A stretch of DNA of 64,000 nucleotides, taken from the NCBI GenBank assembly GCA_030390025.1, contig CM059434.1, forward strand, positions 112,406,001 to 112,470,000, written 5' to 3'. Source of the DNA: Squalus acanthias (Eukaryota). Numbering within the stretch: position 1 is the first letter of the stretch; the number at the start of each line of letters is the position of its first letter. This document shows positions 9,831-61,400 of this stretch, piece after piece. Both the position numbers and the translations under genes were made by a program. The notes below the pieces were generated by a model. It saw only the letters and a list, made by a program, of their open reading frames with translations, was not told where the DNA came from and made no database searches.

Positions 9831-9840
9831 GTTATACAAT

Positions 9841-21672: not shown

Positions 21673-21998
21673 AGGCGCCCGCCCATGGAAATTTGTTTTT
21701 TTTTTAAATGGGAAGACATTATTCCACATTGTGAATATTTTAGTCTATGCTGATTAAACATTGCAACATCAAAATAATAAGTTTATTTCCAACTTGTTTT
21801 CCTTTTCCCAGAACACACTGAATTATAAGTTTATTCACTGATCTTCAGTTCTGTTGAATATTCAATCACTGAAAATGACAATTTTGGTGAAAACACCCTG
21901 GTCAGTGCAGCATACTGATAATTCAGTCATTTCTTCTGCTTAAAAAAATTGAGAAGTCGCACAACACCAGGTTATAGTCCAACAGTTTTAGATAATTA

Positions 21999-22036
21999 TT
22001 ACGAGCTTTCGGAGCTGCTGCCCCTTCGTCAGGTAA
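21999..22036 (-). ncRNA. Minimal hammerhead ribozyme motif (inverted arm)
   Basis: Reverse complement reads TTAC-CTGACGA-A-GGGGC-agca-GCTCC-GAAA-GCT-C-GTAA. Confidence 0.75.
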
Positions 22037-22464
22037 AGGTACAGTGAGGGAATCTATTACACAGTATATATACACAGAGCAATTTGTCTGCAGAGATACA
22101 GTCTGTTAGGGAGGCATTACATCAAAGACACATCAGAGTACAGCTAAGACAATGAGGTGGGTCACAGGGGGTCCAACGTGTCAAATGCTGCCGTCTGCAG
22201 TTGAGCTTTTAACTTTTTTTTTGTTGGTTTTTTTTTGGTGTTTTTTTTTTAAACTGGAAAGACAGACAACGATGTCGAGTCACGTTCTGTAGCGTGACAT
22301 GAACCCGAGATCCCTATTGAGGCCGTCCTCATGGGTGCAGAACTTGGCTATCAGTTTCTGCTCGATGATTTTGCGTTGTCGTGTGTCTCGAAGGCCGCCT
22401 TGGAGAACGCTAACCCGCAGATCCGAGGCTGAATGTCCTTGACTGCTGAAGTGTTCCCCGACGG

Positions 22465-23153
22465 GCCACAGCGAAAAACCGCATAGACCTCCTCAGAAGG
22501 CGAACACGGGACACAACCAACAGAGTACCCTACGTCGTCCAGTACTTCCCCGGAGCGGAGAAACTACGCCATGTTCTTCGCAGCCTTCAACATGTCATCG
22601 ATGACGACGAACACCTTGCTAAGGCCATCCCCACGCCTCCACTACTCGCCTTCAAGCAGCCGCCTAACCTCAAAAGTACCATCGTTCGCAGCAAATTACC
22701 CAGCTGTCAGGAGAACAGCGACCACGACACCACACAACCCTGCCACGGCAACCTCGGCAAGACATGTCAGATCATCAACACAGATACCATCACCACATGT
22801 GAGGACACTACCCACCAGGTACATGGTACATACTCATGTGACTCGGCCAACGTTGTCTACCTCATACTTTGCAGGAAAGGATGCCCCGGAGCATGGTACA
22901 TCGGCGAGACCATGCAGACACTGAGACAACGTATGAACGGACACCGCGCAACAATCGCCAGGCAGGATTGTTACCTCCCAGTCGGGGAACACTTCAGCAG
23001 TCAAGGACATTCAGCCTCGGATCTGCGGGTTAGCGTTCTCCAAGGCGGCCTTCGAGACACAAAATCATCGAGCAGAAACTGATAGCCAAGTTCCGCACCC
23101 ATGAGGACGGCCTCAATAGGGATCTCGGGTTCATGTCACGCTACAGAACGTGA
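22465..23153 (+). pseudogene. Penelope ORF C-terminus: RT thumb end, Cys linker and GIY-YIG endonuclease
   Basis: Translates ..PPLLAFKQPPNLKSTIVRSKL..QPCHGNLGKTC..SCDSANVVYLILCRKGCPGAWYIGETMQTLRQRMNGH..PVGEHFS..EQKLIAKFRTHEDGLNRD..SRYRT*. A 10-bp deletion at ~23060, visible against the inverted arm, shifts the frame. Confidence 0.92.
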
Positions 23154-23395
23154 CTCGACATCGTTGTCTGTCTTTCCAGTTTAAAAAAAAACACCAAAAA
23201 AAACAACAACAAAAAAGTTAAAAGCTCAACTGCGGACGGCAGCATTTGACACGTTGGACCCCCTGTGACCCACCTCATTGTTTTAGCTGTACTCTGATGT
23301 GTCTTTGATGTAATGCCTCCCTAACAGACTGTATCTCTGCAGACAAATTGCTCTCTGTGTATATATACTGTGTAATAGATTCCCTCACTGTACCT

Positions 23396-23433
23396 TTACC
23401 TGACGAAGGGGCAGCAGCTCCGAAAGCTCGTAA
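23396..23433 (+). ncRNA. Minimal type I hammerhead ribozyme motif
   Basis: Stem I TTAC/GTAA, core CTGACGA, stem II GGGGC/GCTCC, GAAA, palindromic AGCT stem III, cleavage triplet CUC. Confidence 0.78.
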
Positions 23434-24689
23434 TTTTAAATAAAACTGTTGGACTATAACCTGGTGTTGTGCGACTTCTCATTTTTGTCCACCCCAGTCC
23501 AACACCGGCATCTCCGCATCATAAAAAAATTGAGTTATTCAATAGACTGTGTTGGAAGACAAATGTACCTCAGTATGATGCAGTAAAATGGTCAAGGAAA
23601 TTTATAGAATATCCAGAATGTCAGGACTGGACAATCCATTTTAGGTAACTGACCAGCGCATACAATTTTTCAACAAGACTTCTCAGTGCTGATCGCTGTG
23701 GTTCTGAAATCAATAGTTAATGCAGTAGGCTAGTTACAAGGTGTGAAAATTAAGGTCACTAAGTAGAACGGATTCATTACTCAGCTACCGTGTAAACTCA
23801 AAGTAAGCAGTTACTGGAGTGCAAAATCTTCCTGCCTCTATACAACTTGGATTTCTTTTTCCCCATTTGTGTGATGCATTTTCTCTGCAGCTATCCTAAT
23901 GTCATGAAGTAAAACTAGATGCACCCAATCGAGAGAGTGAAGACATCCCTCTTCCTCAAAACAGGCATTTCTATTTTTCAGGACTAAAATAAATTTGTAG
24001 CAGTTTGCTGGAGTCCACATAAAGCACTCTCGGGTCAGGCCCTGGAAAACCAGTTAGAAAAAGGAATAAAACAAAACGTCCTATGCAAATTTCCCCAACA
24101 CATGAAAAACCAACCTCTTGTCGGTAAACAGTCAAAATCAACTTCGCTCTTCATTTGTTTTTCTACTCGGTCAAAAACATCAAATATTAAAAGTCCTAAA
24201 ATTTGTGCTCAAGCAAAACAGCACCCCCAACTTCCAGCAGCAGGAAATTTCAAAAATTGATTTTAACTCAACAAAAGTACACACTTTCAATTCATGAAAA
24301 GTACTGAGAAAATATTTATTCAATGTGCAATAGGAGCAGTTTTTCCACACACAATGCAACATTTCAGCACGATAATGGAGACGTTCAAAAACGTAAGTGA
24401 CACCATGAAGTAAGAATAATCAAATCTAATCCGGAAAAGCAAATAGCCACATCCACCATGTAGGTCAAAGGAAAATTCTTAATGGGCAGGAAATCACTGC
24501 AATTCGTATCATCTGCTATTAATCACTACAAAAAAATGTGTTGCTACTCTGAAATGCTCATCTGTATTATGCAACACTACACACAAATTAAACTGGACAG
24601 CTGAATGTCTTTTTAAAAGGAGCAGGTAAACATTTTCCATTGTGTGTTTTGGAGACCAAATACTTTGTTCTTGAAAATAAACAGGAATT

Positions 24690-24965
24690 TTTTAAGAGGC
24701 TGGATGTGTTCTTTTTGGAAAAAGAGATGACTTCTAGGTGACCAAGCTAGTGGTTCAAAGATTTTGAAGGAGATTGACAAAGTTGATCAGAGGAAATTTT
24801 TGTTTACCATGGAAAAGGGTCAAATACCAGAAAGAAAAATGTAAAAGTTTGAAGTCAGGAGTAAGAAGGGAAATCGGATGAGGAACTGAAGGATTTGGCC
24901 ATTAGGTAAGGTTCAGATCAATGAAAAAGGGATTGACTTATTGGTCCTAATGGCCTCTTCCTGTT
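24690..24965 (+). mobile_element. Highly degenerate CR1 3' fragment
   Basis: aggctggatgtgttctttttggaaaaagagatgacttctaggtgacc..gttcaaagattttgaaggagattgacaaagt..ggtcctaatggcctcttcctg. Confidence 0.55.
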
Positions 24966-27805
24966 GCTTAAAATCCACGTCACTTTTTCCAGCTTTCGTT
25001 GGGACAACTGTACAATATATTTAAAAATTAAGATACAGTACCAAGATTGCTTTCTGCTTAAACAGCTAATTTATTAAACATGGATAAAGACAGCAAAACA
25101 AGGACATAAAGATTTTATATTTCAAGATGCCCCTGTGTATGTGGGGCAAGAGAGCGAGAATGTGAAGACAATTAATTTTAAGATACAGTTGTCACATTTA
25201 CTTCTTTAGTTATTTTGATTATATTTTCACACTGAAGATTGATGTCTGGTTGGTCTGACAGTCAAGAAAGGGTCATTGCATGAATAATATGGATAGCTTA
25301 GGGGAGGATTCTATTAATTCAGGATGTTATCTAGAAATTAGTGGTTTACCCAATATAGGGTTGAAAGCTTGCAAGTAAAGCATGTTTAAGCATTTGGTTT
25401 TGTTCCCTCCCCTTTATTTTCGAAACAATTAAAGAATGGAATCTATGCAGTACCAAGTCAGCAACATTTTAGTTAATAAATCATAATTCCAATCGATTTG
25501 TTCAGTACGGATTCAGTGAGGATCTAAAGGGTTTAAGTTCTAAACCTTTGAAAAATTCCGAGCATAAAAGTTTTTGTTCCTTGATAATATGGATACAGTG
25601 TTCTCAGCTGATAATCAACTTCCCTTGTATTCTGTCGACGCCTTCACTGTATACCTTGGACTGGGGACACTTCGAACATATTGCAATTTTCCATTACTCC
25701 TCCCGCCAACTACTGTATCACATTGAAGTTTTTAATCTGGAACTACTTACAACTTGGACTTCGCAGGCAGGATGGAAACTGCTCTGGCTTATCCAGTGAG
25801 TCAACAGGAAACCACTTGTCCAGTTCTGTCTCTGTTGTCCACTAAATACTAAAAGCTTGACAGATATTGGGGTATGGGACTAATAAGCATTTAATACAAG
25901 TACTACTACATTTACTTCAATATATGATGAGAAATCACTGGAGGGTTGAAAGTAGGGCCAGTTCTTGTACACAAACCATTGAGGTGGATGATACCATGGC
26001 TCACGTGCGGGAGTGCAATCACCCTCCTCCTGTCCAGATAGTGTTCTCTCTGTTCTGGAACTTCTGATTTCTACACTTCAGCTATTAAGAAGCTATAAAA
26101 CTTTATGTATAATGTATTTGGAAAAAAGGTCCTTATTGGATCCTCCATTCCATTGAAAGCTTCAACTGATCCAGCTGTCCTTGATGCCTTCGGCACTATT
26201 CTGTACGGATTCTCCGATTCTATAATGGGACCATTTTTAGTGCAGTAGTATTTTTTTCTGTTAGGTGTTGCCAATTCTCAAACTACAAAAAAAAAGTTGA
26301 CCCTCAGTTTCTTTCACCGTGCGTTTTTTGAGCCAGAGCCAACTAACAAGACACAAGAGCACTCCTATCTCTGTAGAATTGTATTGACAGCAATCCAGTT
26401 TTACAGATCCAAGATAATAAGGAATTAATCTTAGTTCTGGTCATTTAAAGTGTGCCCCAAGGAACTAGAGTGCTGGATATTTCACAAATCACCATCTACA
26501 ACATCCCCACCTTACTGCCTTAAGTGACTGACTGAAGAGCTACAAACGATCCTGCCACTGAACGCAGCAACCAGCACATTAAAAGGCACGCCAACTTTAT
26601 CACTAGTGTTTGGTAAAATTAAGTTTGTTTCCAAATGCACACGATTATGTAAATCATGTTGAATTGCACTATTGCATCTACTTCAGTTGTAATCTGATGA
26701 CCAAAAAATGACACGGCTCTTCTGCCTCATCTCACTCAAGAAAAAAATTCTAAACACTTTCTCCCCATGAAGAAAACGCCTCTATCACAAGTCCACGACA
26801 CACTCAGAATTACAACTGCAACATACTATATGCTGAACACACTCATCTTCTGAAGCCCCAGGTAGAACACAGTATAAAAGCCAAGATTATCACACTTATG
26901 ACTAGGTCATTCCCTCTACATAAATCCAAGAATAACATACAGAGATAAAACTGTGACAGACATAAAAGTACTGTGCACAAGATATTTTTACATTTTTGTG
27001 GCAACCAATTTTTCCAACTGAAACTCTTGGTTTTATTCTCTCTTCATTTTTGTGAAGAATTTCTACACAGAAATGATCATCAGCATTATAGCCTACCCTC
27101 TGTCAAACAATGAAGACCAAGCTTCAATAGCCTAGTAACTAGTAGTGCCGCACACTGGACTTGAACTATAAAACTGTACGGTTGCACTACAGCCTTCACG
27201 ATAAAATTTGCCCAAGTTTCAATGTCATACTTGTACCACTTGGCACTATTGATACTAGTATTGCAGTGTGGCCAGAACAATTTGCAATACTAGTACGACT
27301 GTGACATTGACATGGCTCCATTTATAGTTGCCCGGACAAGGTGATTGCGGCCGCCTCTCACTGTGGCAATTGTTTTTACAACTGAATTGCTTGCTAGACT
27401 AAAATAAGGAGGTATGTCAGCGCAAGAGGATATGTATGGGATACTATAAAAAGTTAGAAATAGAGAAGGATCATTAAAGTTAGTTTTTGCTGCAAATTTA
27501 TTTTGCTTTCCTGGTGCTTTTCAAGCTTGAGCATCAAAAACCGGGAGAAAATGGAGTGGAAAAAATGGAGTTTAAAATAAACCCAGGTAAATTTGGAGAA
27601 CAATCCTTTTTTTATTAGAAACATCACTAAAACTCAAGACGACAAGAGCTAAATGACATCCCAGTTACTTAAACAGTTCACAGTGCCCACTTCTATGGGC
27701 CTCAATAGCAGTTCCAAAAATTCTTGACAAGTGTGAGCTTGCAGCAATTGTGTTAACCAAATGGGATAAGAAGTTTAAAAGTAAATGGGGCAAGAATTCC
27801 GAACG

Positions 27806-27984
27806 CTCCCTGGTCTTTGCAGGTCCCAAGATGTGAGGGCATTGCGTTAATGACATCATCATGCACGTCGCATATTGGCATATGTTAAGTGATGTTTATC
27901 ACGTGCAAGGCATACATCATACAAACGTTCACAATATCACTCATGCGATGCCCACACATCTTGGGACCACAGAAGACCAGGGAG
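27806..27984. repeat. Imperfect palindrome (~51-bp arms, ~76-bp spacer), probable old MITE
   Basis: ctccctggtctttgcaggtcccaagatgtgagggcattgcg.. versus the reverse complement of ..tgcgatgcccacacatcttgggaccacagaagaccagggag. Confidence 0.8.
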
Positions 27985-28867
27985 AATGTGTCATTTTCCA
28001 GGTCAGAATCAGGAAGGAACTTCTTTTTACTAATCTACCAACCTGAAAAAAATCTGGGTATTGAATATTGGAGGAAGAAAAGGTAATGGAAGAAATGGTA
28101 AAAACTGATTTTAATGATTCCCTACAAATAGGCCGCACTACCTATGTGATATTACTATCAAATGTCATCCAACTAGTTTATAGGTTCCAAACGCATCACA
28201 TTTTCCAGCCCAGTGATTGTGTCTATTTACTTAATATATGCAAAAATATCACCTGGATGCAAAACCTATTGAAAATAACACGCCTCCTTTACAGCTTTCA
28301 TTAGATCAAATATGGAAATTGTTACAGTGAAAAGCAGAATTATGCAGTTGGGAAGTTTCCACAATTGTCCTACAAACCCTCATGTATCCACTTGTGAAAG
28401 GTGGTGTGTGCATGAGTTGTCATGAGTCACGCAATCACAATCTGAACTGAAAGGCAATCAGTTTGTGTGTCATTTGGGGCCAAATTTATAGCAGTTCATC
28501 TTTGCAAAACATTATTGTTACATTCATGATGCAAGAATGGAAATGCATACTTAAATCACTACACTGTATATTCAACTGAACATTTCTAAAATAATGTATG
28601 AACACAATTGAGGTTTGTAACCAAGTTTGCCAATTTTGTGACTTTGTAAAATGACTTGCACCAACTGGATCATTTCACACCAGAGCAACTTGCACTACAA
28701 TCAAAGTTCATAGAATCATCGAAATTTACGGAACAGAAGGAGGCCATTCGGCACATCTTGTCCGTGCTTATATTCTATGCCTTGGCTAATAAAGGCAAGT
28801 ATCCCGTATGCCTTCTTAACCACTTTATCTACCTGTCCTGCTACCTTCAGGGATCTGTGGACATGCA

Positions 28868-28993
28868 GAGAGTCATACAGCACAGAAAGAGGCCCTTCAG
28901 CCCATCGTGTCTGTGCCGGCCATCAAGCCCTGTCTATTCTAATCCCATTTTCCAGCACTTGGTCCGTAGCCTTGTATGCCATGGCGTTTCAAG
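28868..28993 (-). mobile_element. CR1 3' tail nested in CR1
   Basis: agagtcatacagcacagaaagaggcccttcagcccatcgtg..cacttggtccgtagcc. The host resumes gacatgca|cgccaaggtccctc. Confidence 0.75.
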
Positions 28994-29025
28994 CACGCCA
29001 AGGTCCCTCTGATCTTCTGCACTTC

Positions 29026-29665: not shown

Positions 29666-32534
29666 TCAGTGTCTTAGCATTTAATGTGTATTCCCTTGCC
29701 TTGTTAGCCTGCCCCAAATGCATTACCTCACACTTCTCCAGATTGAATTCCATTTGCCACTGTTCTGCCCACCTGACCAGTCATTAATATCTTCCTGCAG
29801 TCTGCAGCTTTCTTCTTCATTATCAACCACACAGCCAATTTTTGTATCATCTGCAAACTTTTTAATCATAATTCCTACATTCAAGTCCAAATCATTGATA
29901 TATACCACAAAAAGCAAAGGACCCAGTACTGAGCCCTGCAGAACCCCACTGGAAACAGCCTTCCAGTCACAAAAGCACCCTTCGACCATTACCCTTTGTT
30001 TCCTGCCTCTCAGTTAATTTTGTATCCAACTTGACATTTTGCCTTGGATCCCATGGGCTTTTACTTTCGTGACCAGTCTGCCATGCAGGACCTCATCAAA
30101 AGCCTTGCTAAAATCCATATAGACTACAATCCATATAGACTACATTAAACGTACTACTCTCATCGACCCTCCTTGTTACCGCCTCAAAAAATTCAATCAA
30201 GTTAGTCAGACACGACCTTCCCTTAACTAATCCATGCTGACTGTCCCTGATTAATCAGTGTCTTTCTAAATGAAGATTTATCCTGTCCCTCAGAATTTTT
30301 TCCAATAATTTTCCCACCACCGAGGTTAGGCTGACTGGCCTGTAATTACTCGGTCTATCCTTTTGAGTTCAGATTGTTACACTAGACTTGTTCTTTTAGG
30401 GAGATCTGAATTCACCAAACATAACTTCAGGCCAGTTTTACTGGCTCCATTAAATTTTTTTTTAAAGTATTTAGAGCAGGATTACCCAAGTATGTGTTAT
30501 GTATGCAGTGACATTGTGCCAGTTAGAACTAGAATCAGTTTGGAGATGAATAGCTTGATGCTGACCACACCAGAGCTGGTTTTGTTGCTTCTGACCATGG
30601 CCAGTTTGGTTACAAACCATTGTGTTATTTGCTGCACCTCAGTGACTGAATTTTAGCCAATTTCAGAATTGTCTGTTTTCCAAAGTTCACTGTAACCTGG
30701 ACAAAATCTGCAGCCAGTATTTTGTGGGCCACTTTTAAAAAAAATTAAGCACTACTTGCTAACAGAAAAATTTATGGGATGTAACTGGAATCTATACACA
30801 AAGAAAAGTACATGGAACCAATTCATTATGAAATACCTTAGGAATGCGACCACATCACTTGGAAGCAGAGCAACTCCACTGAAAAATTAAACACCGATGA
30901 GGATTCATCCCTAATTTAAGCAGCCTAATTAAATGAACTGTAAAATAATATATACATGCAGTACAACAGCAGATCAGCAGGGGAAAACAAAAATAAAACT
31001 TTACTTCTACATCTAACAAAAGCACATTAACCATGACATTGCCCCAGCAAACCGGCCAATGATCAAGACAGCATACATGCTTCACATCAACCTCTACATA
31101 CCTTACAAAACACCAACCTTCGCAATAAGAGAATATGCTTTAAATCAAACACCGAACAGCAGACATGTTTTCCATGGGATTTATTATGAAGCACTGAAAT
31201 GTTACTGGAGCATATTTTACCCTCTTCAGTTCAGGGAGTTTCAAGTTACACACTGACTTCTACCATAGGAAACAGATGTGTTACAAGTGGAGATTGCAGC
31301 TTGTGTCATTTTAAATTGATCAGGGGAAATTAAAGGGACATACAGCTGTGCTTTATGGGGGGAGGGTGCGATACATCTCAAAGCAGGAACTTCAGTTACA
31401 TCAGATGTATCTAGAATTTAACAGCAGAACGGCAGCTCTAGCTGCTCAGCAACTAATCCCCAATTGGAAAGTAAGGAGTTCAAGTTCCATGGTTACTCAT
31501 CACTTCAGCACAATTCGGTTACTGTGAATTGCCCAATTCTCAGCTGTTTTGCAAGATGCAGCGCTACATAGAAATGAGGTACTGCTCTTTGCATGTGTAG
31601 AGACAGGAGCAATTATTCACTGATGTCACAGCACATACCCCTTACATGTGGTAACTAAAGTGGGTGAAAACATTTCCTTCTGGCATTAACTTCTGGATTT
31701 CAGTTCCGTAACCCTCAATCTAACATTTCTTCAATTCACAGCAGAAATATCAGATGTGTCTCCTAAAGGTAAAGCACATCACTTTGGAAAAGAACCTTAA
31801 TTCCTCTGTCTCACTACAAAAAGCATTTGTTTCATCAGCTGAGAGTAGCCCAGCACTGGTATTCAGTGGTTTTTGGAGCATGGTTTACATAATCCACTCA
31901 GCCAACTTTCCATCTAAAAGACAAGAGAAAAACATTCAACAGGAGATATTATGAAGAATGATCAATAGCATTAATAATGCTTTGCTGTGTCAAGGGATAA
32001 GTATGCAACATCAATGAGTTGTTCTTGTATGGGGTTAGAAAAAGATTAGTATAAAGTGGAATCTTCCTATCATTACGAGGACTGTCTTTTGAGTGTAAAT
32101 AGAATGAAATGTATACATCAGACCGATGTAACTGTTACACTCCCAACTCTTACAGCATTTGGCAAAACATCATGCATGCTGGTGTGTACATTACATCCCA
32201 AGTTCACTGATCATATGTTACCTGTGTTGAGGCTTATGCATTGGATTTTATGGGTAAAATGGTTATAAGGTTGCAATTTTTTTTATATATAGTGCTTGCA
32301 ATGTGTCTGGCAAATGGAACAAAGAAAAATTATTGACACTGTCTTAACTCAGCACTTATTGAAGCATTTTGATTGCTTATTCCCAATATAGAAACACTAG
32401 CAAATTAACTTCAGGAACTGCAATCTTAATAAAAGAGGTTTCTGGGGTACCACAGAGACTTATTTAAGTTACAGGAATTTGTCAGCATATTTCGCTAGAG
32501 CAATTTGCAGAAGTATTTAACACTGTTACACAAC

Positions 32535-32830: not shown

Positions 32831-33311
32831 TGAAATGAGGAATAGCAGCTCCATTTCAACAGCAGCATCGGCAGGAAATTTCTTCATCATCATCACCTGC
32901 TCCCATTGCTGTGAAGTTGGGGAAGTCAGAGCTTAGCACAAGCATACTCGCTGCACATGCATGAACTGCTTCTTCCCACCCGCAAGGCCAATGGCTAACC
33001 AGGGTTGTATGTGATCATGGAATCCTTGAATAAGCAAGCGCATTGCTCAGCCCCTCACTCGCCCGTCACCATTCCGGTCAGATGCTGCTTGGGTGATCAA
33101 ATGCTGCTGCATTGGGCCGGAAATCGTGATCTCAATATTTTTGAGTGACTAAGAGTTGCCATCCAAAGAAAGAAAGACTTGCATTTATATAGCGCTCGTC
33201 ACGACCACCGGACATCCCAAAGCACTTTACAGCCAACAAAGTACTTTTGAAATAACAGAAAATGCTGGAAACACTCAGCAGGCCAGGCAGCATCCGTGGA
33301 GAGAGAAACAG

Positions 33312-33348
33312 AGTTAACGTTTCAGGACTGGGACCCTTCATCAGAACT
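33312..33348 (-). ncRNA. Minimal hammerhead ribozyme motif (inverted arm)
   Basis: Reverse complement reads AGTT-CTGATGA-A-GGGTC-cca-GTCCT-GAAA-CGT-T-AACT, with one stem II mismatch. Confidence 0.65.
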
Positions 33349-33575
33349 GGAAAAAGCTGGAGATGTAACAGATATTAAGCAGGTGCAGCGACAGGGGGCA
33401 GGGGGCGGGGCACGGAGGAAGGAATTGAAGGAACATACTGTACTTATGTAACATTTTATCTTTCCTGCCTCTTACATGAGCACAGTATATTCCTTCAATT
33501 CCTTCCTCCCCTGCCCCTGCCCCCGCCCCCCGCCTCTGCACCTGCTTAATATCTGTTACATCTCCAGCTTTTTCC

Positions 33576-33612
33576 AGTTCTGACGAAGGGTCCCAGACCT
33601 GAAACGTTAACT
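33576..33612 (+). ncRNA. Minimal type I hammerhead ribozyme motif
   Basis: AGTT-CTGACGA-A-GGGTC-cca-GACCT-GAAA-CGT-T-AACT: stem I AGTT/AACT and palindromic ACGT stem III. Confidence 0.78.
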
Positions 33613-34924
33613 CTGTTTCTCTCTCCACGGATGCTGCCTGGCCTGCTGAGTGTTTCCAGCATTTTCTGTTGCTATTTCAGATTTCCAGCATCCGCAGCAT
33701 TTTGCTGAAGTACTTTTGAAGTGTAGTCACTGTTGTAATGTAGCACCATAGCATGCAGCAGCATTAGGCAAGAGTGGCAGTGATAGATGAATTTGGGAGG
33801 GGGTGGGGGGGGGCAGAAAAGAGAAAAAAAAGTGGGTAAACAGTGCCAGCCTGAGTGGAGGAAAAAAATACCAGTGTGAAATGGGGTGAAGGGAGGGAGG
33901 GAATTACAGTCACTCTGTAAACGAGGACGGAGGGGGAACAACAGACAATTTCAAAACTATTCAACATTCCAGAAAATAATTTAGCAGCCTTCAGGGAAGA
34001 GTGCCAAAACATATCCCACAATTCTTTTGCACTGAAGTGTCAACACTGCAGATTGGGCCACAGGAGCTCAGAGAGTCAAGATACTGGAGAATGCTAATCT
34101 AAGTCTTCTATAACTACATATGGGGCTGGAAAAGCACAATTTTAAAGAGTCTGTATAAAAAGGCTGATAAAACTGCCGTGAGAAGGGACACAGATTAATG
34201 GGACATATTCACAGACTTGGAACTGGTTTCGCTTTAAATGGATTGTTATTTGCATAACATTACAGCATCAAAAGTAAACGGGACAACTAATTTGAATATC
34301 TTGCCCAATACTGCATCAGAAATGGAAAGAATGCAAACTGATGAAATTTTTGATTAATCACTTATCTGCAGACATTAAACAGCTACGGGTTCAACCTTGT
34401 AACTGAAACAGGGGCCAGTCGCATATTTACACAAACAAATTTAAAACTGGAAGATTTCTCAAAGCTTTTGATAAAATAAAATCATCAGTTAGAACTTTTG
34501 TTTCACCACATCCCCCCACCCCACCTCAAATCACAACCATTTACCAAAACACTTCCTCAAAGTGCATGAACAAGAGAACTAGACTTCCCACAACCTCTAC
34601 AGGTAATTTATTACTGAAATAATTATTTATCACGGAGGCAAGAGCTTAGTTTAACCACAGATCCCACAAATATTTTACCAGTGGGGGCCTGAAATTGTTA
34701 AATGAGCAGAAGGGGAAAAACCTTCAAAAACCTTCCTGCCTCCTTTCATTCACCCCTTTATCATTGGGTTGGGTAGAAGTAGACACACACGAACTTCAGG
34801 ATAGTTAAAACTTTGTAGGAGTATGTACGCACCACATTAGAGGAGTGCAGACTTCTAGTCTCCCACACACAAATAGAAAATATTCAAGTAAGCTACTTCT
34901 CCCAGTACACAAAACAGGAAGTTA

Positions 34925-35260: not shown

Positions 35261-35284
35261 GGCCTTCTAAAATCTTTTTTTAAT

Positions 35285-35852: not shown

Positions 35853-35914
35853 GTAACTTGGGTTAGTGAGAGGTTTGAGCTCTTTAACACCAGGGTGATG
35901 ATCAACACCACCAA

Positions 35915-42392: not shown

Positions 42393-43208
42393 TTACAGCT
42401 AGGTGCTTGATCAAACTTTTAATCATTCTTCTTTTTCTCAAAAAAGAGACAAATGAAGATATATGCACATGGACTGGTTTAGGATGATTTGGAAACTGAC
42501 AGCAGGTTGGAATATGGAACAAAGAAGATGTTCAATGGTGTTCATAGAATAGAATCATAGAAAGTTACAGCACGGAAGGAGGCCATTTCGGCCCATCGTG
42601 TCCGCGCCAGCCAAAGAGCTATCCAGCCTAATCCCACTTCCCAGCTCTTGGTCCGTAGCCCTGCAGGTTAGAGCATCCCAAGTGCACATCCAAGTACTTT
42701 TTAAATATGGTTAGGGTTCCTGCCTCTACCACCCTTTCAGGCAGTGAGTTCCAGACCCCCACAACCCTCTGGGTGAAGAAATTTCCCCTCAAATCCCCTC
42801 TAAACCTTCCACCAATTACTTTAAATCTGTGCCCCCTGGTTTTTGACCCCTCTGCTAAGGGAAATAGGTCCTTTCTATCCACTTTATCTATGCCCCTCAT
42901 AATTTTATACACCTCGATAAGGTCCCAACTCAGCCTCCTCGGTTCCAAGAAAAACAGACCCAGCCTATCCAGTCTTTCCTCATAGCCAAGATTCTCTACT
43001 CCCGGCAACATCCTTGTAAATCTCCTCTGTACCCTCTCTAGTGCAATCACATCTTTCCTGTAATGTGATGACCAGAACTGCACGCAGTACTCTAGCTGAG
43101 GCCTAACTAGTGTTTTATACAGTTGAAGCATAACCCCCCCCCTGCTCTTGTATTCTATTGTGAGAAGTCGCACAACACCAGGTTATAGTCCAACAGTTTT
43201 ATTTGAAA

Positions 43209-43245
43209 TCACAAGCTTTCGGAGCGCTGCTCCTTCGTCAGGTGA
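43209..43245 (-). ncRNA. Minimal hammerhead ribozyme motif (inverted arm)
   Basis: Reverse complement reads TCAC-CTGACGA-A-GGAGC-agc-GCTCC-GAAA-GCT-T-GTGA. Confidence 0.75.
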
Positions 43246-43655
43246 AGTGAAGAAATGTATATCGGCACAGCATATATAGTCAGAGAACACTGCCAGACGA
43301 GTACAGTTAATCTTTCTAACTGCCCTTTATCACACCTCGGCAGAGATAATCACGGCAATCAAAGGTGTGGATGGTGTCCAAACAGGTCAGTCAGGAAAAC
43401 ATTACATCAAAGACAATGAGGTGGGGTCACAAGGGGTCAAATGTGGCAGATGCTGGGGTCTGTATGGAAAACAAAAAACTTTTTTTGCTGGATATCACAG
43501 CTGGTCCGGCCGCATCGGTGTAGAGAGAACAAGCCAACGACGACTCGAGTCTGGATGACTCTACGTCAGGTGAGGTTACATGTAGCGTGATTAACTGTAA
43601 TCGTCTGGCAGTGTTCTCTGACTATATATGCTGTGCCGATATACATCTCTTCACT

Positions 43656-43692
43656 TCACCTGACGAAGGAGCAGCGCTCCGAAAGCTTGTGA
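43656..43692 (+). ncRNA. Minimal type I hammerhead ribozyme motif
   Basis: TCAC-CTGACGA-A-GGAGC-agc-GCTCC-GAAA-GCT-T-GTGA; stem I TCAC/GTGA covaries with TTAC/GTAA at 23396. Confidence 0.78.
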
Positions 43693-46600
43693 TTTCAAAT
43701 AAAGCTGTTGGACTATAACCTGGTGTTGTGCGATTTCTCACATTTGTTCACCCCAGTCCAACACCGGCATCTCCACATCATGGCTTGTATTCTATGCCAC
43801 GGCTAATAAAGGCAAGCATTCCGTATACCTTCTTAACCACCTTATCTACTTGGCCTGCTACCTTCAGGGATCTGTGGACATGCACTCCAAGGTCCCTTTG
43901 TTCCTCTACACTACTCAGTGTCCTACCATTTAATGTATATTCCCTTTCCTTGTTAGCCCTCCCCAAATGCATTACCTCACACTTCTACGGATTGAATTCC
44001 ATTTGCCACTGTTCTGCCCACCTGACCAATTTATTGATATCTTCCTGCAGTCTACAGCTTCCTTCTTCACTATCAACCACACAGCCGATTTTAGTATCAT
44101 CTGCAAACTTCTTCATCATACCCCCTATATTCAAGTCAAGATCAGTGATATATACCACAAAAAGCAAGGGACCTAGTACTGAGCCCTGCGGAACCCCACT
44201 GGAAACAACCTTCCAGTCACAAAAACACCCATTAACCATTACCCTCTGCTTCCTGTCTCCGAGCCAGTTTTGAATCCAACTTGACACTTTGCCCTGGATC
44301 CCATGGGCTTTTAACTTCGTGACCAGTCTGCCATGTGGGACCTTATCAAAAGTCCATATACACTACATCAAATGCACTACCCTCATCTACCCTCCTCCTT
44401 GTTACCTCCTCAAAAAATTCAATCAAGTTTGTCAGACACAACCTTACCTTAACAAATCTGTGCTGACTATCCTTGATTAATCCGTGTCTTTCTAAAATGA
44501 AGATTTATCCTGTCCTTCAGAATTCTTTCCAATAATTTTCCCCCCACCGAGGTTAGGCTGACTGGCCTATAATTACTCGGTCTATCCTTTTCTCCCTTTT
44601 TAAACAAGGGTACCACATTAGCAGTCCTCCGGCACCACACCTGAAGCCAGAGAGGATTGAAAAATGGTCAGGGCCTCTGCTATTTCCTCTTTTGCTTCGC
44701 TTAACAGCCTGGGATACATTTCATCCGGGCCTGGGGATTTATCCACTTTTAAAGCTGCTAAACCCCTTAATACTTCCTCTCTCACTATGTTTATTTCATC
44801 TAATATTTCACACTCCTCCCCTCTGATAGCAATGTCTGCTTCGCCCCTCTCCTGTGTGAAAACAGATGCAAAGTATTCATTAAGAACCCTACCAACGTTC
44901 ATTGGATACAATACAAACATCCACTTTTACAAAGATATTTAATGGAGTTTTTTTTAAACAATCACTTTTCTTCTTTGAGCAGACAGTGCTTTTGAGTAGC
45001 TCTTCTTGCGCCTGCACGGCCGTGAGCTCAGGACTAGAATAAGTCTGCAATCACTGAACATGTACATCATGCATAGCAAATGTGCAAAGGTCTGTTACTT
45101 TCAATAGGTTTACAACATTACTGCCAGTGCAAAAAATTATGTGGCCAAAGTTTTCTTTTCTCATTCTGAGGGATTCGATCCAAACAAAATGAGGTAAATT
45201 GTTATCACAAAATTAAATGTATGGTCTAGCGCAAATGTTCCATTCTGGAATAATGATGCCCATGAGAAGCATATATAATACAAAAAGAAATGCAACCCTT
45301 GACTTCAGCATGCAGCCACTGGAACATGTTTGGAAAATTATTATAATTTAGTGATTTCCTTCCTTTTTAATGGTTATCGCTCTTTCAGTACAGTTGTGCA
45401 AAATCTAGCTGGCTGACTACAGCCAACGTGCTTGTTCCTTTCACCAACTAGATCTCTAGCAGCAAGCATTTTAAACGTGAGTGACCACTATTACTTTAAA
45501 AAAAATCCTCCCAATAAATGGTGATCTAATATACAAAGCAAAATAATTGACACAATCTGAATAAAGCAGAATGAATCTTTCACTTTTACCAGTGTACAAT
45601 TAGTCTTTGAAAATACTGCCTGTATAAAAATCTAATTCTATTTTTTTCAGTTCCGAGTAGTTTGTAAGAATAGGATTATATACTAGAGAGACCCAGTGCT
45701 TGCTCTCTACAGCTTTGAATGACATAAACATATGCTCATTTTTGTCAGTCACACACACTTCCAAAGTATCTCTCACACACATAGAAAGTATCTGTGAACC
45801 AAATAATCCCAAGTTCTGAAATAAATAAACAGTAGCGTTACTTGAATAATGCAGATTGCCTGCAATACAGATAACAAAACTCAGGCAATGCATTTTTGTA
45901 CTTTGCTCCCCGTTCCTTCCACTCCCGGGTTCAATGTCTGCCACTGCATCCCATACCAAATATGAGCTTCCATTCACTCCACCTTCCGCTTCCAGACCTG
46001 GACTTTCCCTTTTCTGCACTGAGCTGAATTTCAAATAATAACAGCAGTCAACTGAGTGGATGCACTGCAAAATTTGCCAGGTCACAACTCAAGAACGCAA
46101 TACAAGGGTGAAATGTTTTCACGTTGCATCTTCTTTCTTATCTAATGTGAACATATTCATGAAATGTAATTCAAAAGCAAGAGTTCAGAGAAAATGTTGC
46201 AGCTGTCAAATTATACTGTACTGAATCTGTTGGAGCATTCCTCCCCCTACATATTACATTTCGACCACTGCTCTAGAATTGAATTGCAGAGTTTGGCACA
46301 AAATGTAATTTTTTGTTAAATCTTGTAAAATAAAGACCCCGCATCTCAACTCTTCTCGGTGCTCCCATGAACTTCTCACGACCTCAACAAACCCCATCCT
46401 CCCACACTGCACAGCCTCCACTTCGACAACCTATCGCCTCCAAATTCTCCAATACCCCAGCTCTTCAAAGTGTTCTTGCGCCCTTCCCCTCCACTGCAGG
46501 GATGGAACCTCCTATGCGCCACGGGCAGTGCCATAGTTGTATTATTTTTTTTAAAAAGCCACCTCAAAATATAGGACAAGGCATCTTAAAGGATAGTAAA

Positions 46601-53400: not shown

Positions 53401-53403
53401 CTG

Positions 53404-54911: not shown

Positions 54912-55000
54912 CATAAAAAATTGAAACAGGAGTAGGCCATACAGCCCCTGGAGCCTGTGCACCATTCAATAAGATCATGGCTGAACTTCTACATCAACTC
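54912..55000 (-). mobile_element. CR1/HER1 3' tail
   Basis: aacaggagtaggccatacagcccctggagcctgtgcaccattcaataagatcatggctga. Confidence 0.8.
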
Positions 55001-55520
55001 CAACTCCTCCTCTGGACCTCCTCCACCAGGACCTCCAGTGCCGCATCCGAGAACCTGTGCGCCCTCTCCCTCGGTCCCTGAGCCTACAAGGTGTCGCTGT
55101 ATGCCAGTCAGAGCACTCCACACCTTCAGTGGAAGTGGGTGCGAGGAGCCCACACATACTGCTCCACGAAAATTGCGTCTAATCAGCACTTGAGTGCAAA
55201 ACCTGTAGGTGTCTGTTTAGCACCGCCAGGCAATTTAAAATTACAGTAATCAGCAATTAGGACCAACATTTGTATAATATATCCAGACTTTGAAACAGGT
55301 TAATCTTATTACTGCTGCACCCATTTAGCGCCTGTTTTCACCCTTTTGCCAAAATAACCCCCCCGCCACTTACTCGTATACGCCATCCCCCTTGTTTGCT
55401 GTACCTCTTTGCTTCATACCTCTTAAAAGCAGAAAAGCAGAGATCAGCAATTCATCAGCCGAAGGAATAGATCTCCCTCATGGCGCCACATGTTGGTGCT
55501 TCAGTATTCTATGAACGACG

Positions 55521-56329
55521 TTCAGGCTTGGGCTGATAAGTGGCAGGTAACATTCGCGCCACAGAAGTGCCAGGCAATGACTATCTCCAACAAGTGAGAG
55601 TCTGACCACCGCCCCTTGACATTCAACAGCATTACCATCACCGAATCCCCCACCATCAACATCCTGGGGGTCACCATTGACCAGAAACTTAACCAGACCA
55701 ACAACATAAATACTGTGGCAACAAGAGCAGGTCAGAGGCTAGGTATTCTGCGGCAAGTGTCTCACCTCCTGATTCCCCAAAGCCTTTCCACCATCTGCAA
55801 GGCACAAGTAAGGAGTGTGATGGAATACTCTCCACTTGCCTGGATGAGTGCAGCTCCAACAACACTCAAGAAGCTCGACACCATCCAGGACAAAGCAGCC
55901 CGCTTGATTGGCACCCCATCCACCACCTTAAACATTCACTCCCTCCACCACCGGCGTACCGTGGCTGCAGTGTGTACTATCTACAAGATGCACTGCAGCA
56001 ACTCGCCAAGGGTTCTTCGGCAGCACCTCCCAAACCCACGACCTCTTCCACCTAGAAGGACAAGGGCAGCAGGCGCATGGGAACACCACCACTTCCAAGT
56101 CACACACCATCCTGACTTAGAAGTATATCGCCGATCCATCATCGTCGCTGGGTCAAAATCCTGGAACTCCCTCCGTAACAGCACTGTGGGAGTACCTTCA
56201 CCACACGGACTGCAGCGGTTCAAGGCGGCGGCTCACCACCACCTACTCAAGGGCAACTAGGGATGGGCAATAAATGCTGGTCCTGCCAGTGACGCCCACA
56301 TCCCATAAAAATGAATTTTAAAAAAAAAA
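55521..56329 (+). mobile_element. CR1-group (Zenon-like) LINE 3' fragment
   Basis: ORF 55616-56260 is near-identical to 10540-11230, with the same 3' UTR and an A-rich end. Confidence 0.92.
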
Positions 56330-57050
56330 TGGTAGCTCTACTTTGCTCCATCGCTATCTTTTCTCTCATTAAATCCCGATGTACTTTTGGTCATGGATAT
56401 TTTATGGGCTGCAAAAATGTAAAGCTGCTTCAACAAAGAATAGCATGAGATAAAGGAGAAAGAAAGAGAGGGGCTGAGATGGAGTGATGGGATGGGGATT
56501 CAATGCTCTGATCAATGCTTCTCCTCAGATGGGACTTGAGCAAAGGCCAGCTGCCTCCCTGCAATGGGAAAGGGAGAAAGAAAGCTCTGATCGGGAGTTT
56601 TCAGTAGGCTGCTGTCAACGTGCTCATTACAATTTGCCAAACGTTGTGTTCATAGTGGCCTGGCAAATTGCACTGACCTCTTTGCCACAGAAGTTTGGTC
56701 CAAGATGGGCTAGGAACAGGAGAAAAGGTGGCATATCCTTTTTAAGGAAACAGGAAGATGAGTTGCCACAATGTGGGGGAAACTTGGCAGTGCAAGGTAG
56801 TTCTGCAGCCTGGTTGCCAAGTCAAAACAAAATCCAGAGATACATTTCAATATTAAAATACAAAGTAGTTATTGCATACCATTCAAATACTATTCATTTG
56901 AGTTGATATTGGAAATAGTAGAAAATACTTTTCATTAACATTACTTATTGAGCTTCTCTCCTTTGATTAATCCATTTTGAGACAAATAATTAAACCATCC
57001 CATATCTCGCTCAGTTTTTTGATGGGTATAAAGTTGAGCATTTTGTGGCA

Positions 57051-57856
57051 AACAAAAATAACAACTTGTATTTATATAGCACCTTTAACGTAGTAAAATG
57101 TCCCAAGGTGCTTCACAGGAGTGTTATAAAACAAAATTTGACACCAAGCCAAACAAGGAGATATTAGGGCAGATGACCAAAAGCTTGGTCAAAGAGGTAG
57201 GTTTTAAAGAGCGTCTTAAAGGAGGAAAGAGAGGTAGTGAGATGGAGCGGTTTAGGGAGGGAATTCCAGAGCTTAGGGCCTTGGCAGCTGAAGGCATGGC
57301 CACCAATGGTTGAGCGATTAAAATCAGTGATGCTCAAGAGGGCAGAATTAGAGGAGCGCAGATATCTCGGTTGGGGGGGTGGGGCGCGTGGTGGCTGGAG
57401 GAGATTACAGAGATAAGGAGGGGCAAGGCCATGGAGGGATTTGAAAACAAGGATGAGAATTTTAAAAATCGAGGCATTGCTTTACTGGGAGCCAATGTAG
57501 GTCAGCAAGCAGAGGTGATGGGTGAACGGGACTTGGTGCGAGTTAGGATACGGGCAGCCGAGTTTTGGATAACCTCAAGTTTACATAGGGTAGAATGTGG
57601 GAGGCCAGCCAGGAATGCGTTGGAATAATCAAGTCTAGAGGTAACAAAGGCATGGATGAGGGTTTCAGCAGCAGATGAGCTGATACGGGGGCAGAGACGG
57701 GCGATGTTACGGAGGTGGAAGTAGGCGGTCTTAGTTATGCTGCAGATATGCGGTCAGAAGTTAATTTCAGGGTCAAATATGACACCGAGGTTGTGAACAG
57801 TCTGGTTCAGCCTCAGACAGATGCTAGGGAGAGGGATGGAGTCCGTGGCTGGGGAA
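57051..57856 (-). mobile_element. L2 LINE 3' portion
   Basis: Reverse complement of ~1195-2005; starts with the aacaacttgtatttatatagcacc tail. Confidence 0.92.
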
Positions 57857-58737
57857 TGGGGTCATTAGAAATTCCCACACAAGCAATTTTTTGTTGTGCC
57901 AAAATTCTGCCCGATAAAATTATCTCACCTGGATTGACAGATGTCAATCCTCAGCTGTTCCTTTCCAAACTTGTATCTTCAGTTCCTTGGAATTCTCTTT
58001 CAGTATGTCTCAATTTCAATCTCCTACTCAACACGAAGATTAGCCTTACAAGTCACTCATGATTCACCGTCATGTTTCAACTTCATTGCTCACTCTTTTT
58101 GCTGTCAAATCACTTACATTTCTTCCGTCAGTCAGAGACAGGCTTGCAACTCTCATTCTGATGAGCTATTCTGCCCACTCATGTTCTTGTCCCCAATCTC
58201 CAAAATTTCCCTTTGCTTTTACTACACTTGAGTTTCAATAGCTGATAATTGGCCAGTCTACATCTGATTTACCGAGCACCTAAAACATGGATAAAATAGG
58301 CACTGGGGGCTGGGATTCTCCCAATTTGGCACCAAATAACCTTTCGAACCAATACACAAACTGGCAGGCCGGATTTAGCTGGACAAGCAGTGGGAAGTTT
58401 ACTGGTGCTCTGTACTAGTAAGCTGCACTCTTTCAGTTGGTTAAGCTCCAATAGCATCCCTGCATGCATTTCAGGTCCCGAAGCCTTGGGTCTGCTATGG
58501 GTATTTAGGTAAGCAGGGTATATCCTAATGGGGAGAGCAAACACACTAAATATCAGGCCAACAAAGTTTGCAAATGCAGATTTCTCAGTATTTAGCTTCA
58601 GAGACTAAACAAGGCTCTGGGTTTCCACACATGCCAAGACAAAAGAATGATAGAAAACTCCATGAGGTTCAGATTGCCCTTGGGGATCCATTGGTTATTT
58701 TACCCTAGGACAGTGTACACCTTTGAGGTACCACATT

Positions 58738-59007
58738 AAAGAAAGACGTGCATTTATATAGCGCCTTTCACAACCAACGGACGTCTCAAAGCGCTTTACA
58801 GCCAATGAAGTACTTTTTGAAGTGTAGTCACTGTTGTAATGTTGGAAATGCGGCAACCAATTTGCGCACAGCAAGCTCCCACAAACAGCAATGTGATTAT
58901 GACCAGATAATCTGTTTTTGTTATCTTGGTTGAGGGATAAATATTGGCCAGGACACCAGGGATAACTCCCCTGCTCTACTTCGAAATAGTGCCATGGGAT
59001 CTTTTAT
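58738..59007 (-). mobile_element. SacSINE1-like DeuSINE, 3' half
   Basis: Reverse complement of ~36297-36555 (ttggccaggacacc..agtgccatgggatctttta). Confidence 0.88.
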
Positions 59008-60095
59008 GTATTTATTTCGATTATTAAACTCTCCTAATGCTCTAAAGCCACCCTATGTTATACTTCTCCTCAATTTTAATGAATTAGAACACAGGTCTAA
59101 ACTGAACTAGTTACAGCTTATTTAATGTTTTGGAATATTAATTGTAGAAGTTTAAATGAGCAATATCTTCAATTAAAGTCTTTAGGAGCAAAATAAATTT
59201 GATAAACACAATGTGGCAACACAAGTAACAACAAAATCATTATCTTGCCGATGGATGGTTTAAACACAAAAGTGGTGAGTTTTGTTGTACTCCAAATTTT
59301 TTTTTTTAAATCGCCAATCTCTTTCTCTAGATAATACTGCCCGTTCAAAAGCATGAATGCATACATACACTCACGAATGCATGCAGTATTCAAGATAAAG
59401 CCTTCAAGCAGGACAGCCTCAATCTTAATCTATACGGATTTGATAATATAAACTGTTTCCACAGAGTATTGCTTCCTCACTTGCCTTGCCTCTGCTTAAA
59501 AGGGGCTCGTTCAATTTGGCTGCCCTCTTCCGCACCCTCCCCGTCACCCCCCCACCCCCCCACCCCCGAAAGTGGGCCCGAGAGAATCTCTCTCTCTCCA
59601 TCTCCCCCAAAACAGCATCTGTCACTGGTTTCCACCCCCGCACCCCCCCCCCACATTCCTCAGATTGCATGCTGCTGAAGAAGTCAGGAGTTCATTTATC
59701 AGAGACAGGCTCCTGTTTATCAGGGCTGTTGCTCATTAGATTAATAGTTCTCCCACTCCAATGGGCCTGGCCCTACCATTTCTAAACACTTTCAGGCCAG
59801 ATGTCACAAAAAAAGAAAATTCTCAAATTCGCACACCCCTCTAGCTATGGATAATGCGACTAACAAATCTGTAAAAATGTCTCTACTAATTTCCACCTAC
59901 CCCTCTCCCTGTTGAACTCTTATTTCTCAATATGCATTTAGTTTTACTTGGGTTTTCTGTATTTATTTCTAGCTCCATAAATGTTTACTCTCACCTTTCA
60001 CAGTACTTTAGTATTTCTCCCATTATTTTCTTCCCCTCAATATTTCTCTTTCCTGGTATTTAATTCTCTCTCAAGTGTACATTTGTCAGTATTAT

Positions 60096-60185
60096 GCTGA
60101 TGAAGGGTTCGACCCGAAATGTTGACTCTGTTTCTCCTCTCTTCGATGCTGCCTGACCTGCTGAGTGTTTCCAGCACTTTGTTGT
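60096..60185 (+). mobile_element. 90-bp Penelope-derived hammerhead mini-insertion
   Basis: gCTGATGA-A-GGGT-tcg-ACCC-GAAAtgttgactctg.. homologous to 33580-33670; 14-bp TSD tttgtcagtattat (60082-95 and 60186-99). Confidence 0.85.
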
Positions 60186-61097
60186 TTTGTCAGTATTATC
60201 TTCTCTCCCTGTATGTAGTTCTCCGATTAGTAGTTTCTTCTCACCATGGAGATGGTGCGGAGGACAGAGAACTGGTTCCCTCCCCTTTTGAAATATGATG
60301 CTGTTTCTCTTGGTGTTAGCTCAAACAATGGCAACTGATCAAAACAGTTGCAAAAAAAATTTAAATCAGAGGCTGCACCGAGAACCAAACTAGCACACCG
60401 ACAGTGATGTCATCATCTGCAACAGAGGCTTATAAATAACTCAGATCATTCAGACCCTGCCTCTACAAAGGATTCTCCTATCAGAACTGTTGATCCTCTG
60501 TTGATTGATTAGCATCTAATTAGGCAGTTACATGCTGTAGATTTGAGAGGGACCCTGAGCTTTGTAGATATTTACATTTGCAAAGAGCTCTGTGCAGGAT
60601 TCAACACGGGGAGTCAAATGGCTATCTGAATATGGGGGGGGGTGCCTCTATGTACCTGCGCACATACACAATGAGGGAGGGGGAGGAAGTTGTTAAAGCC
60701 AAGTTTAAGTGTAGGTTAGCAAATTTGTTTTGTACATTTTTGTTACGTGATCAATTTTATTTCAGGGGTATACAGTGGGGTGGGTTAGAAATAGTAACAT
60801 TGGTTATATTTCAGGAGTATGTGCTTTGCTGAAATGCAGTTAGATTTGTTTTGGTCACGAGGACATAGACAGGCTGGTGGAATGGGCGGACACGTGGCAG
60901 ATGAAATTAAACGCAGAAAAGTGTGAGGTGATCCATTTTGGAATGAAGAGACAATACATGCTAAATGGTACAATTTTAAACAGGGTGCAAGAAGAGAGAG
61001 ACCTGGGGATGCTTGCACACAAATCTTTGAAGGTAGCAGGACAGGTTAACAAAGCAGTTAGTAAAGCAAATGGGATCCTGGGCTTTATAAATAGAGG

Positions 61098-61315
61098 TCA
61101 TGATGTGGAGATGCCGGCGTTGGACTGGGGTGGACAAAAATGAGAAGTCGCACAACACCAGGTTATAGTCCAACAGATTTATTTAATTTTACAAGCTTTC
61201 GGAGCGGTTCGCTCCTTCCTCAGGTAGGGTAGCAGTGAGAGAATCTCCCAGAATTCACAATATAAACACAGAGAAAATCTATTCAAATCTTTCCCTACAT
61301 CAAAGACTTCTCATT
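61098..61315 (-). mobile_element. Short Penelope pLTR insertion with hammerhead and a ~14-bp vestigial inverted arm
   Basis: Same 3' tail as the 21951 and 43159 elements, in antisense; gacttctcattttt at ~61305 inverts aaaaatgagaagtc; 14-bp TSD tttataaatagagg (61084-97 and 61316-29). Confidence 0.9.
61190..61226 (-). ncRNA. Minimal hammerhead ribozyme motif
   Basis: Reverse complement reads TAC-CTGAGGA-A-GGAGCG-aac-CGCTCC-GAAA-GCT-T-GTA. Confidence 0.75.
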
Positions 61316-61400
61316 TTTATAAATAGAGGCATAGAGTACAAAAGCCAGGAAGTTATGCTAAACCTATATAAAACACTAGTTCAGCCTCAGCTGGAGTATT

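Follow-up and report, generated by a model that had tools for sequence, protein, structure and literature searches.

Minimal hammerhead motifs in truncated insertions of two Penelope-like lineages of the shark Squalus acanthias

Minimal hammerhead ribozymes (min-HHRs) sit in the pseudo-long terminal repeats (pLTRs) of metazoan Penelope-like elements, for which a palindrome rule, solo copies, opposite-strand pairs and a low activity of dimers have been named (Cervera and De la Pena 2014, PMC4209133). Among these elements, a CX2-5CxxC linker is a mark of Neptune and Nematis (PMC8557442), and the hammerhead of the anole undergoes protein-assisted cleavage and is not needed for insertion in vitro (PMC11167929). 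Hammerheads are also carried by retrozymes, of which the axolotl has ~126,000 motifs in two groups (PMC7229834; bioRxiv 10.64898/2026.07.22.740005). Here we analyse a stretch of 64,000 nt from Squalus acanthias (GCA_030390025.1, CM059434.1:112,406,001-112,470,000, forward strand; hereafter the window, in whose own coordinates positions are given), for which an original prediction had placed eight hammerhead motifs in five insertions. Most probably, the five insertions are truncated and stem from two Penelope-like lineages that diverged deeply, and the eight motifs in their pLTRs are minimal hammerheads of type I; RNA cutting would be limited to transcripts of elements that are full length or in tandem, and would not take place in those of the window copies. 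This reading draws on the anatomy of the insertions, their target-site duplications (TSDs), the link to open reading frames (ORFs) for reverse transcriptase (RT) plus endonuclease, the copy numbers and the covariation among subfamilies, all of which were observed.

The shark motifs share with the min-HHRs of PMC4209133 the type I architecture, the CUGANGA/GAAA core, an extra nucleotide after A9, a palindromic 15.2-16.2, the lack of a loop III and a short helix I, as well as the presence of several families per genome as solo copies and opposite-strand pairs. They differ from them in helix II, which is 5-6 bp long in the shark, and no cartilaginous fish is among the 56 motifs listed in that paper. 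Animal non-LTR (non-long terminal repeat) retrozymes are alike in their type I hammerheads, for which dimers are needed in vertebrates (PMC7229834; bioRxiv 10.64898/2026.07.22.740005, which includes one chondrichthyan for retrozymes), but whereas they form short head-to-tail arrays with canonical hammerheads, the window copies are scattered fragments of coding elements with flanking TSDs. A literature search made without most subscription journals found no paper on hammerheads of shark Penelope-like elements. The shark motifs are real, well formed and abundant; the host is new, and this kind of motif has already been described.

Motifs and insertions of the window

The features are listed below. 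The lineages are named after their stem III palindrome, AGCT or ACGT, and P0001 is the protein of a near-full-length AGCT-lineage element described in the next section.

21954..23521, + strand: insertion 1, a 5'-truncated AGCT-lineage Penelope-like copy with an inverted 5' arm (fold-back); TSD 21941-21953 / 23522-23534
21999..22036, - strand: minimal hammerhead of the inverted arm of insertion 1; TTAC/GTAA, GGGGC/GCTCC, AGCT, triplet CUC
22453..23079, + strand: broken ORF remnant of insertion 1, comprising the RT end, Cys linker and GIY-YIG-type endonuclease region; 91% identity to P0001 residues 688-854
23396..23433, + strand: minimal hammerhead of insertion 1, AGCT lineage; predicted cut after 23429
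33252..33707, + strand: insertion 2, a fold-back pLTR copy of the ACGT lineage, tailed only at its right end; TSD 33239-33251 / 33708-33720
33312..33348, - strand: minimal hammerhead of the inverted arm of insertion 2; stem II with a T-T mismatch
33576..33612, + strand: minimal hammerhead of insertion 2, ACGT lineage; AGTT/AACT, GGGTC/GACCT with G10.1-U11.1, triplet GUU
43159..43783, + strand: insertion 3, an AGCT-lineage fold-back copy; TSD 43147-43158 / 43784-43795
43209..43245, - strand: minimal hammerhead of the inverted arm of insertion 3, from motif scan and descriptor
43656..43692, + strand: minimal hammerhead of insertion 3, AGCT lineage; TCAC/GTGA, GGAGC/GCTCC, triplet CUU
60096..60185, + strand: insertion 4, a 90-bp ACGT-lineage pLTR fragment; TSD 60082-60095 / 60186-60199
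60097-60127, + strand: incomplete hammerhead of insertion 4; no 5' stem I strand, ATGT
61098..61315, - strand: insertion 5, a pLTR copy of the AGCT lineage whose 5' end carries an inverted stub of ~14 nt (61305-61318); TSD 61084-61097 / 61316-61329
61190..61226, - strand: minimal hammerhead of insertion 5, AGCT lineage; TAC/GTA, GGAGCG/CGCTCC, triplet CUU

All eight CTGANGA...GAAA motifs lie where they had been predicted (plus strand 23400, 33580, 43660 and 60097; minus strand 22032, 33344, 43241 and 61223), each combining the CUGANGA and GAAA core with a UH cleavage triplet, and the five TSDs, of 13, 13, 12, 14 and 14 bp, were verified. The further claims that every copy has a stem I, a paired stem II and an AGCT or ACGT palindrome hold with exceptions. 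Helices I and II pair in seven of the eight: the copy at 60097 is 5'-truncated one base ahead of CTGA, so that its 5' stem I strand is target DNA, and it reads ATGT, not palindromic, where the other seven read AGCT or ACGT. Stem II pairing is maintained except in the 33344 arm, where GGGTC/GTCCT leaves a single T-T mismatch. A descriptor consisting of the core, stem II of at least 4 bp and stem I of at least 3 bp, with the palindrome left free, accepts seven of the eight motifs, compared with a mean of 0.02 and a maximum of 1 in 50 dinucleotide shuffles of the window. Applied to 800 kb of the genome (80 stretches of 10 kb at round coordinates), it gave 24 hits and none in each of five shuffles, and 23 of the 24 carry AGCT or ACGT.

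Insertions 1-3 contain two motifs each in opposite orientation. Since six of the eight motifs are thus arm pairs of single insertions (three inverted pairs), the window motifs are not independent and represent five events. A same-strand motif pair within one insertion occurs in none of the five. When each of the three fold-backs is folded whole, the sense motif is predicted to base-pair with the insertion's antisense arm. No tandem array was found over any window motif, and the hallmark of non-LTR retrozymes, a short head-to-tail array with one hammerhead per unit, is not seen in the window. Insertion 1 is young, because 100%-identical copies of its pLTR were found elsewhere in the genome. Its ORF fragment alone had no Pfam match, and an Rfam search of the window at E<=5 matched no hammerhead family; Rfam hairpin-type miRNA models on the 33.3-33.6 kb fold-back were below their own cut-offs and were rejected.

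As to the ends of the AGCT insertions, the inverted arm begins at one shared pLTR position (21950, 43161, 61305-61318) and the direct arm stops at the ORF start codon (23522, 43783, 61098), ~50 nt beyond the arm-start position, giving two fixed end sites. Within insertion 1, the A-rich tract 3' of the ORF is unequal in length between the arms (22200-22250 versus 23183-23216), and the 22032 arm deviates from the 23400 arm just beyond stem I.

Two Penelope-like lineages in the shark genome

The prediction that both families are Penelope-like pLTRs with minimal type I hammerheads is borne out by two near-full-length elements that carry a hammerhead in each of their two pLTRs. At L141, AGCT motifs at 4095 and 7231, 3,136 bp apart, flank an 877-residue frame; its protein, P0001, has an RT (Pfam RVT_1, E=2e-9) and an endonuclease motif alignable to that of P0002, after which a frameshift falls inside the endonuclease. 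At L161, ACGT motifs at 1487 and 4686, 3,199 bp apart, flank a 1004-residue frame for P0002, which matches RVT_1 (E=2.6e-5) and GIY-YIG (E=4e-4), both below the Pfam curated cut-offs. Endonuclease-like sequence is present in 13 of 30 ACGT loci, at 28-44% identity, and young copies of both pLTRs were recovered by genome searches. P0001 and P0002 are 31% identical over 825 residues. The protein region of the ACGT lineage shares 72% identity with a Chiloscyllium protein and 51-54% with named sea-urchin, gastropod and coral proteins, and its homologues carry PF00078 and often PF01541 (both among the best 120 of 1,469 matches). The low identity and the homologues of the ACGT protein in distant animals make the split between the lineages much older than the shark genome.

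Both proteins have a C-x4-CxxC linker. A single ORF with an RT, a CX2-5CxxC linker and, at the C terminus, a GIY-YIG-type endonuclease, pLTRs in partial tandem, an inverted 5' copy and a tail at one end only are as in Neptune and Nematis elements (PMC8557442), and by the linker motif the window motifs probably derive from two Penelope-like lineages of Neptune or Nematis type. Unlike what is described for these elements in PMC8557442, clear TSDs of 12-14 bp flank all five window insertions, and the tail is ~40-50 nt long. The Poseidon element PAc of Anolis (Frangieh et al. 2024, PMC11167929) also combines a pLTR hammerhead with two alternative 3' ends that define a tail, but it belongs to another clade and its tail ends 111-118 nt inside the ORF, whereas that of the AGCT lineage stops at the first in-frame ATG, ~90 nt past the cut site, which agrees with reports of internal priming for the anole.

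Motifs were counted by exact patterns over the 3.71-Gb genome, with reversed patterns as controls. This gave 76,583 AGCT motifs, 22,061 ACGT motifs with G10.1 and 33,768 with A10.1 (controls 0, 3 and 0, respectively), at least 132,000 in total; PMC4209133 gives ~4,000 for the coelacanth and ~9,000 for Xenopus, obtained with different descriptors. When 15.2/16.2 was left free and the start of stem II defined, 98,644 of 105,412 motifs (93.6%) were AGCT or ACGT, and among 100 listed rows two were neither (ACAT and AGTT). The extra nucleotide between A9 and 10.1 is A in all 256 motifs listed. The consensus pair of min-HHRs, G10.1-C11.1, to which published exceptions exist, is present in the AGCT lineage, and in the ACGT lineage 10.1 is G or A and 11.1 is T in 32 of 37 and C in none of 37. 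Same-strand arrays of ACGT hammerheads with ~1.6-1.7 kb spacing and no frame of at least 180 codons were also seen (L162:1094-7643 and L163:1221-4604); they could be retrozyme-like or segmental tandem arrays where dimers could form.

Covariation, copy ends and pairing

Covariation was assessed in 37 variants picked by hand from the 256 listed motifs, with an intact core and stem II required. Pairing is kept in 97.8% of 407 cells, against 75.3% in shuffles and 25-45% in controls with slid partners, which agrees with the prediction that compensatory changes kept the fold across subfamilies. Two-sided changes occur at 8 of 11 pairs, loop II varies from ~2 to 9 nt, N7 is free, and the core, for which the rows had been selected, is invariant. 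The G-C to C-G switch at 15.2/16.2 retains self-complementarity in all 37 rows. Within one lineage, a two-sided switch is found at pair 2.3-1.3 only (C-G to U-A), and pair 10.1-11.1 forms the series G-C, G-U and A-U. We rejected G-U or A-U at this pair as a novelty, as both are in Fig. S3 of PMC4209133 (G-U in cichlid, Xenopus and coelacanth, A-U in coelacanth 2).

Several observations weigh against the reading of these motifs as hammerheads maintained in two Penelope-like lineages. The number of pairs with two-sided changes is not above that of shuffles (195 of 500 reach the same value), the choice of the 37 rows for an intact core and stem II brings in a descriptor bias, and most of the compensatory changes come from the single split between the lineages. 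The ribozymes of the two lineages were aligned by structure, not by sequence, their cross-lineage identity being 0.52 compared with 0.47 when shuffled. Minimum free energy folds of single motifs keep stem II in five of seven cases, and stems I and II in the hammerhead register in only two of seven. Finally, the clade assignment is based on the linker motif.

It had also been claimed that selection kept the fold while the rest of the pLTR diverged. Among 21 AGCT representatives, the ribozyme without loop II has an identity of 0.89. Divergence of the pLTR applies upstream (identity 0.58-0.62, lowered by some truncated upstream flanks) but not downstream, where the 45 nt at +6..+50 reach 0.95; flanks of the AGCT and ACGT lineages do not align with each other. 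Among ACGT copies of the unselected 800-kb sample (49 hits), the share of differing cells is 4.4% in the core (16 of 366) and 5.1% in the downstream flank (76 of 1,496). Because inserted copies decay at the rate of their flank, selection appears, judging from these sequence comparisons, to act on source elements rather than inserted copies.

If cleaved RNA served as template, copies would be expected to begin at the cut. A by-eye tally of 100 listed AGCT truncations gave ~9 at the cut versus ~7 per position, without a peak, and one of 30 scripted loci starts there. Genome-wide, 233 AGCT copies have their start at the cut; the position one base 3' has 98 and that two bases 5' has 120, the latter counted in a wider detection window. 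Nominal detection, on the assumption of ~43% G+C and random junctions, is 0.28, 0.28 and 0.44, respectively, and the corrected numbers are ~830, ~350 and ~270. Starts at the cut thus exceed the two neighbouring positions 2-3-fold and make up ~1% of AGCT copies, a weak signal confounded by inversion microhomology, and most AGCT copies span the predicted cut. Indeed, 25 cut-site loci comprise 16 inversion junctions, 5 with GTGAA/GTGA microhomology and 3 directly joined to the TSD, and a control set of 25 loci comprises 17 inversions and 1 direct TSD join. ACGT truncations are mostly 2-nt deletions and insertions of miniature inverted-repeat transposable elements (MITEs).

By pair counting, AGCU with ACGU forms two of four pairs and each palindrome with itself four of four, making the lack of pairing between them a fair prediction. 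From the strand order we infer that stem I, too, would form between the two partners of a double hammerhead. It has 0-1 of 4 pairs between lineages, and among AGCT subfamilies TCAC and GTAA match at 2 of 4 positions, which makes these subfamilies partly incompatible with one another. As stem I alone would block cross-pairing, the palindrome is not the sole or a necessary barrier. As far as the palindromes go, the proposed two classes would not cross-pair, but stem I separates them as well, and the palindromes mark two old lineages. Moreover, different palindrome types in one genome are already known from PMC4209133, in which S. mansoni is listed with GC and CG families and N. vectensis with UA and CG (Fig. 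S3), and A. aegypti has differing palindromes (supplement). The same literature search found no paper on heterodimer specificity.

By analogy with the published systems, pairing, cleavage and its role could take the following form. The window copies are most likely what target-primed insertion left behind, truncated and dead. The motif would act only where two same-strand pLTRs share a transcript. The same-strand pLTR motifs of a full-length element, 3.1-3.2 kb apart, would form a double hammerhead by pairing in stems III and I; alternatively, the motif may fold with the help of the element's own protein. Cutting would be weak or late in the element cycle. The fold would persist through purifying selection on active source elements, with neutral decay of the dispersed copies. 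The palindrome would be kept because a second copy must be paired with, and the AGCU/ACGU difference would be inherited divergence of lineages in a 4-nt stem constrained to self-complementarity, with mutual incompatibility a predicted by-product and no separately selected trait.

Other explanations have to be weighed against this scheme. It is extremely improbable that the window copies are themselves working ribozymes selected by the host: seven of the eight motifs look intact, but the pLTR of insertion 1 is young, core and flank decay alike in sampled copies, the motif is predicted to be tied up by the fold-back arms, a partner on the same strand is absent from every insertion, and no host-gene exon was recognised in 132 of 137 frames of at least 85 codons, although short exons would escape. 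Selection of the two palindromes as orthogonal dimerisation codes, preventing cross-pairing or cross-cleavage between coexisting families, would fit the pair counts within and between palindromes and the dominance of only two classes among motifs with a defined stem II start. We nevertheless consider it very unlikely, given the few stem I pairs across lineages, the parting of the lineages far before the shark genome, the existence of only four ANNU palindromes of 4 nt, of which CG is the commonest in the 2014 table (PMC4209133), and the differing palindromes already present in single genomes of S. mansoni, N. vectensis and A. aegypti. Furthermore, published dimers consist of two copies in one RNA (PMC7229834, PMC6155905), where cross-talk between families need not arise.

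More serious, if still rather doubtful, is the explanation that dimerisation is irrelevant and that the motif persists for an RNA role in structure or protein binding, or as a monomeric ribozyme assisted by protein. The anole ribozyme cut only with protein, was dispensable for insertion and left no read ends at its site (PMC11167929); in the shark, few AGCT copies start at the cut and most span it, and conservation of the downstream pLTR equals or exceeds that of the ribozyme. Against this, the 15.2/16.2 switch stays self-complementary in 37 of 37 rows and in 23 of 24 unbiased hits, and a loopless stretch of 4 nt cannot pair inside one motif, for which reason the palindrome points to pairing between two copies. 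The strongest version of such pairing seems unlikely to us; in it, the two pLTR hammerheads of a full-length element would join into a double hammerhead that is specific to its lineage and cleaves in vivo, the excess of starts at the cut would be a fossil trace of cleaved template RNA, and stems I and III would block cleavage between lineages.

A transposon hotspot, other repeats and significance

At least 968 ACGT motifs hold a MITE-like element with GGGNNNNATTTT ends directly 3' of the GUU triplet, i.e. at the predicted cut site (for example at L237, L238, L241-L243, L245, L248 and L250-L252). Both halves were recovered within 1.5 kb at 10 of 20 such loci, where the element is 646-866 bp long and comes with a 3-bp duplication. 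We rejected an RNA-level event as the origin of this hotspot, since terminal inverted repeats and a 3-bp duplication imply DNA transposition. Among 27 GGGNNNNATTTT ends of a random sample, A is found at -7 in 23, A at -5 in 17 and C at -4 in 15, and the ACGT site matches, suggesting that a target preference at the DNA level probably explains much of the hotspot. From the 3-bp duplication we presume a PIF/Harbinger affinity of the MITE, loosely supported by an open frame in the window (17442-17879, minus strand) with a Myb/SANT-like domain (PF13873, E=7e-5), which we take to be of the kind found in Harbinger-type transposons. The literature search yielded no earlier mention of shark MITEs or of a MITE hotspot at a hammerhead.

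The window also contains RT fragments on both strands at 8083-10466 (RVT_1, E down to 4e-22), together with a weak C2H2 zinc-finger match, further retroelement remnants at 958-1545, 29726-30013 and 43988-44362, and a tandem repeat at 13274-13443 with ~5.8 copies of a 29-bp unit.

The role of the hammerhead in Penelope-like elements is an open question (PMC8557442, PMC11167929), which the window locus does not settle. The shark genome offers young and abundant families, the near-full-length elements L141 and L161, and natural compensatory variants (G-C, G-U and A-U at 10.1-11.1; C-G and U-A at 2.3-1.3), which are convenient material for a test of dimer versus protein-assisted action and for a map of copy ends. 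If double hammerheads did act in vivo, the more than 130,000 copies would form the largest natural archive of the timing and mode of Penelope ribozyme action.

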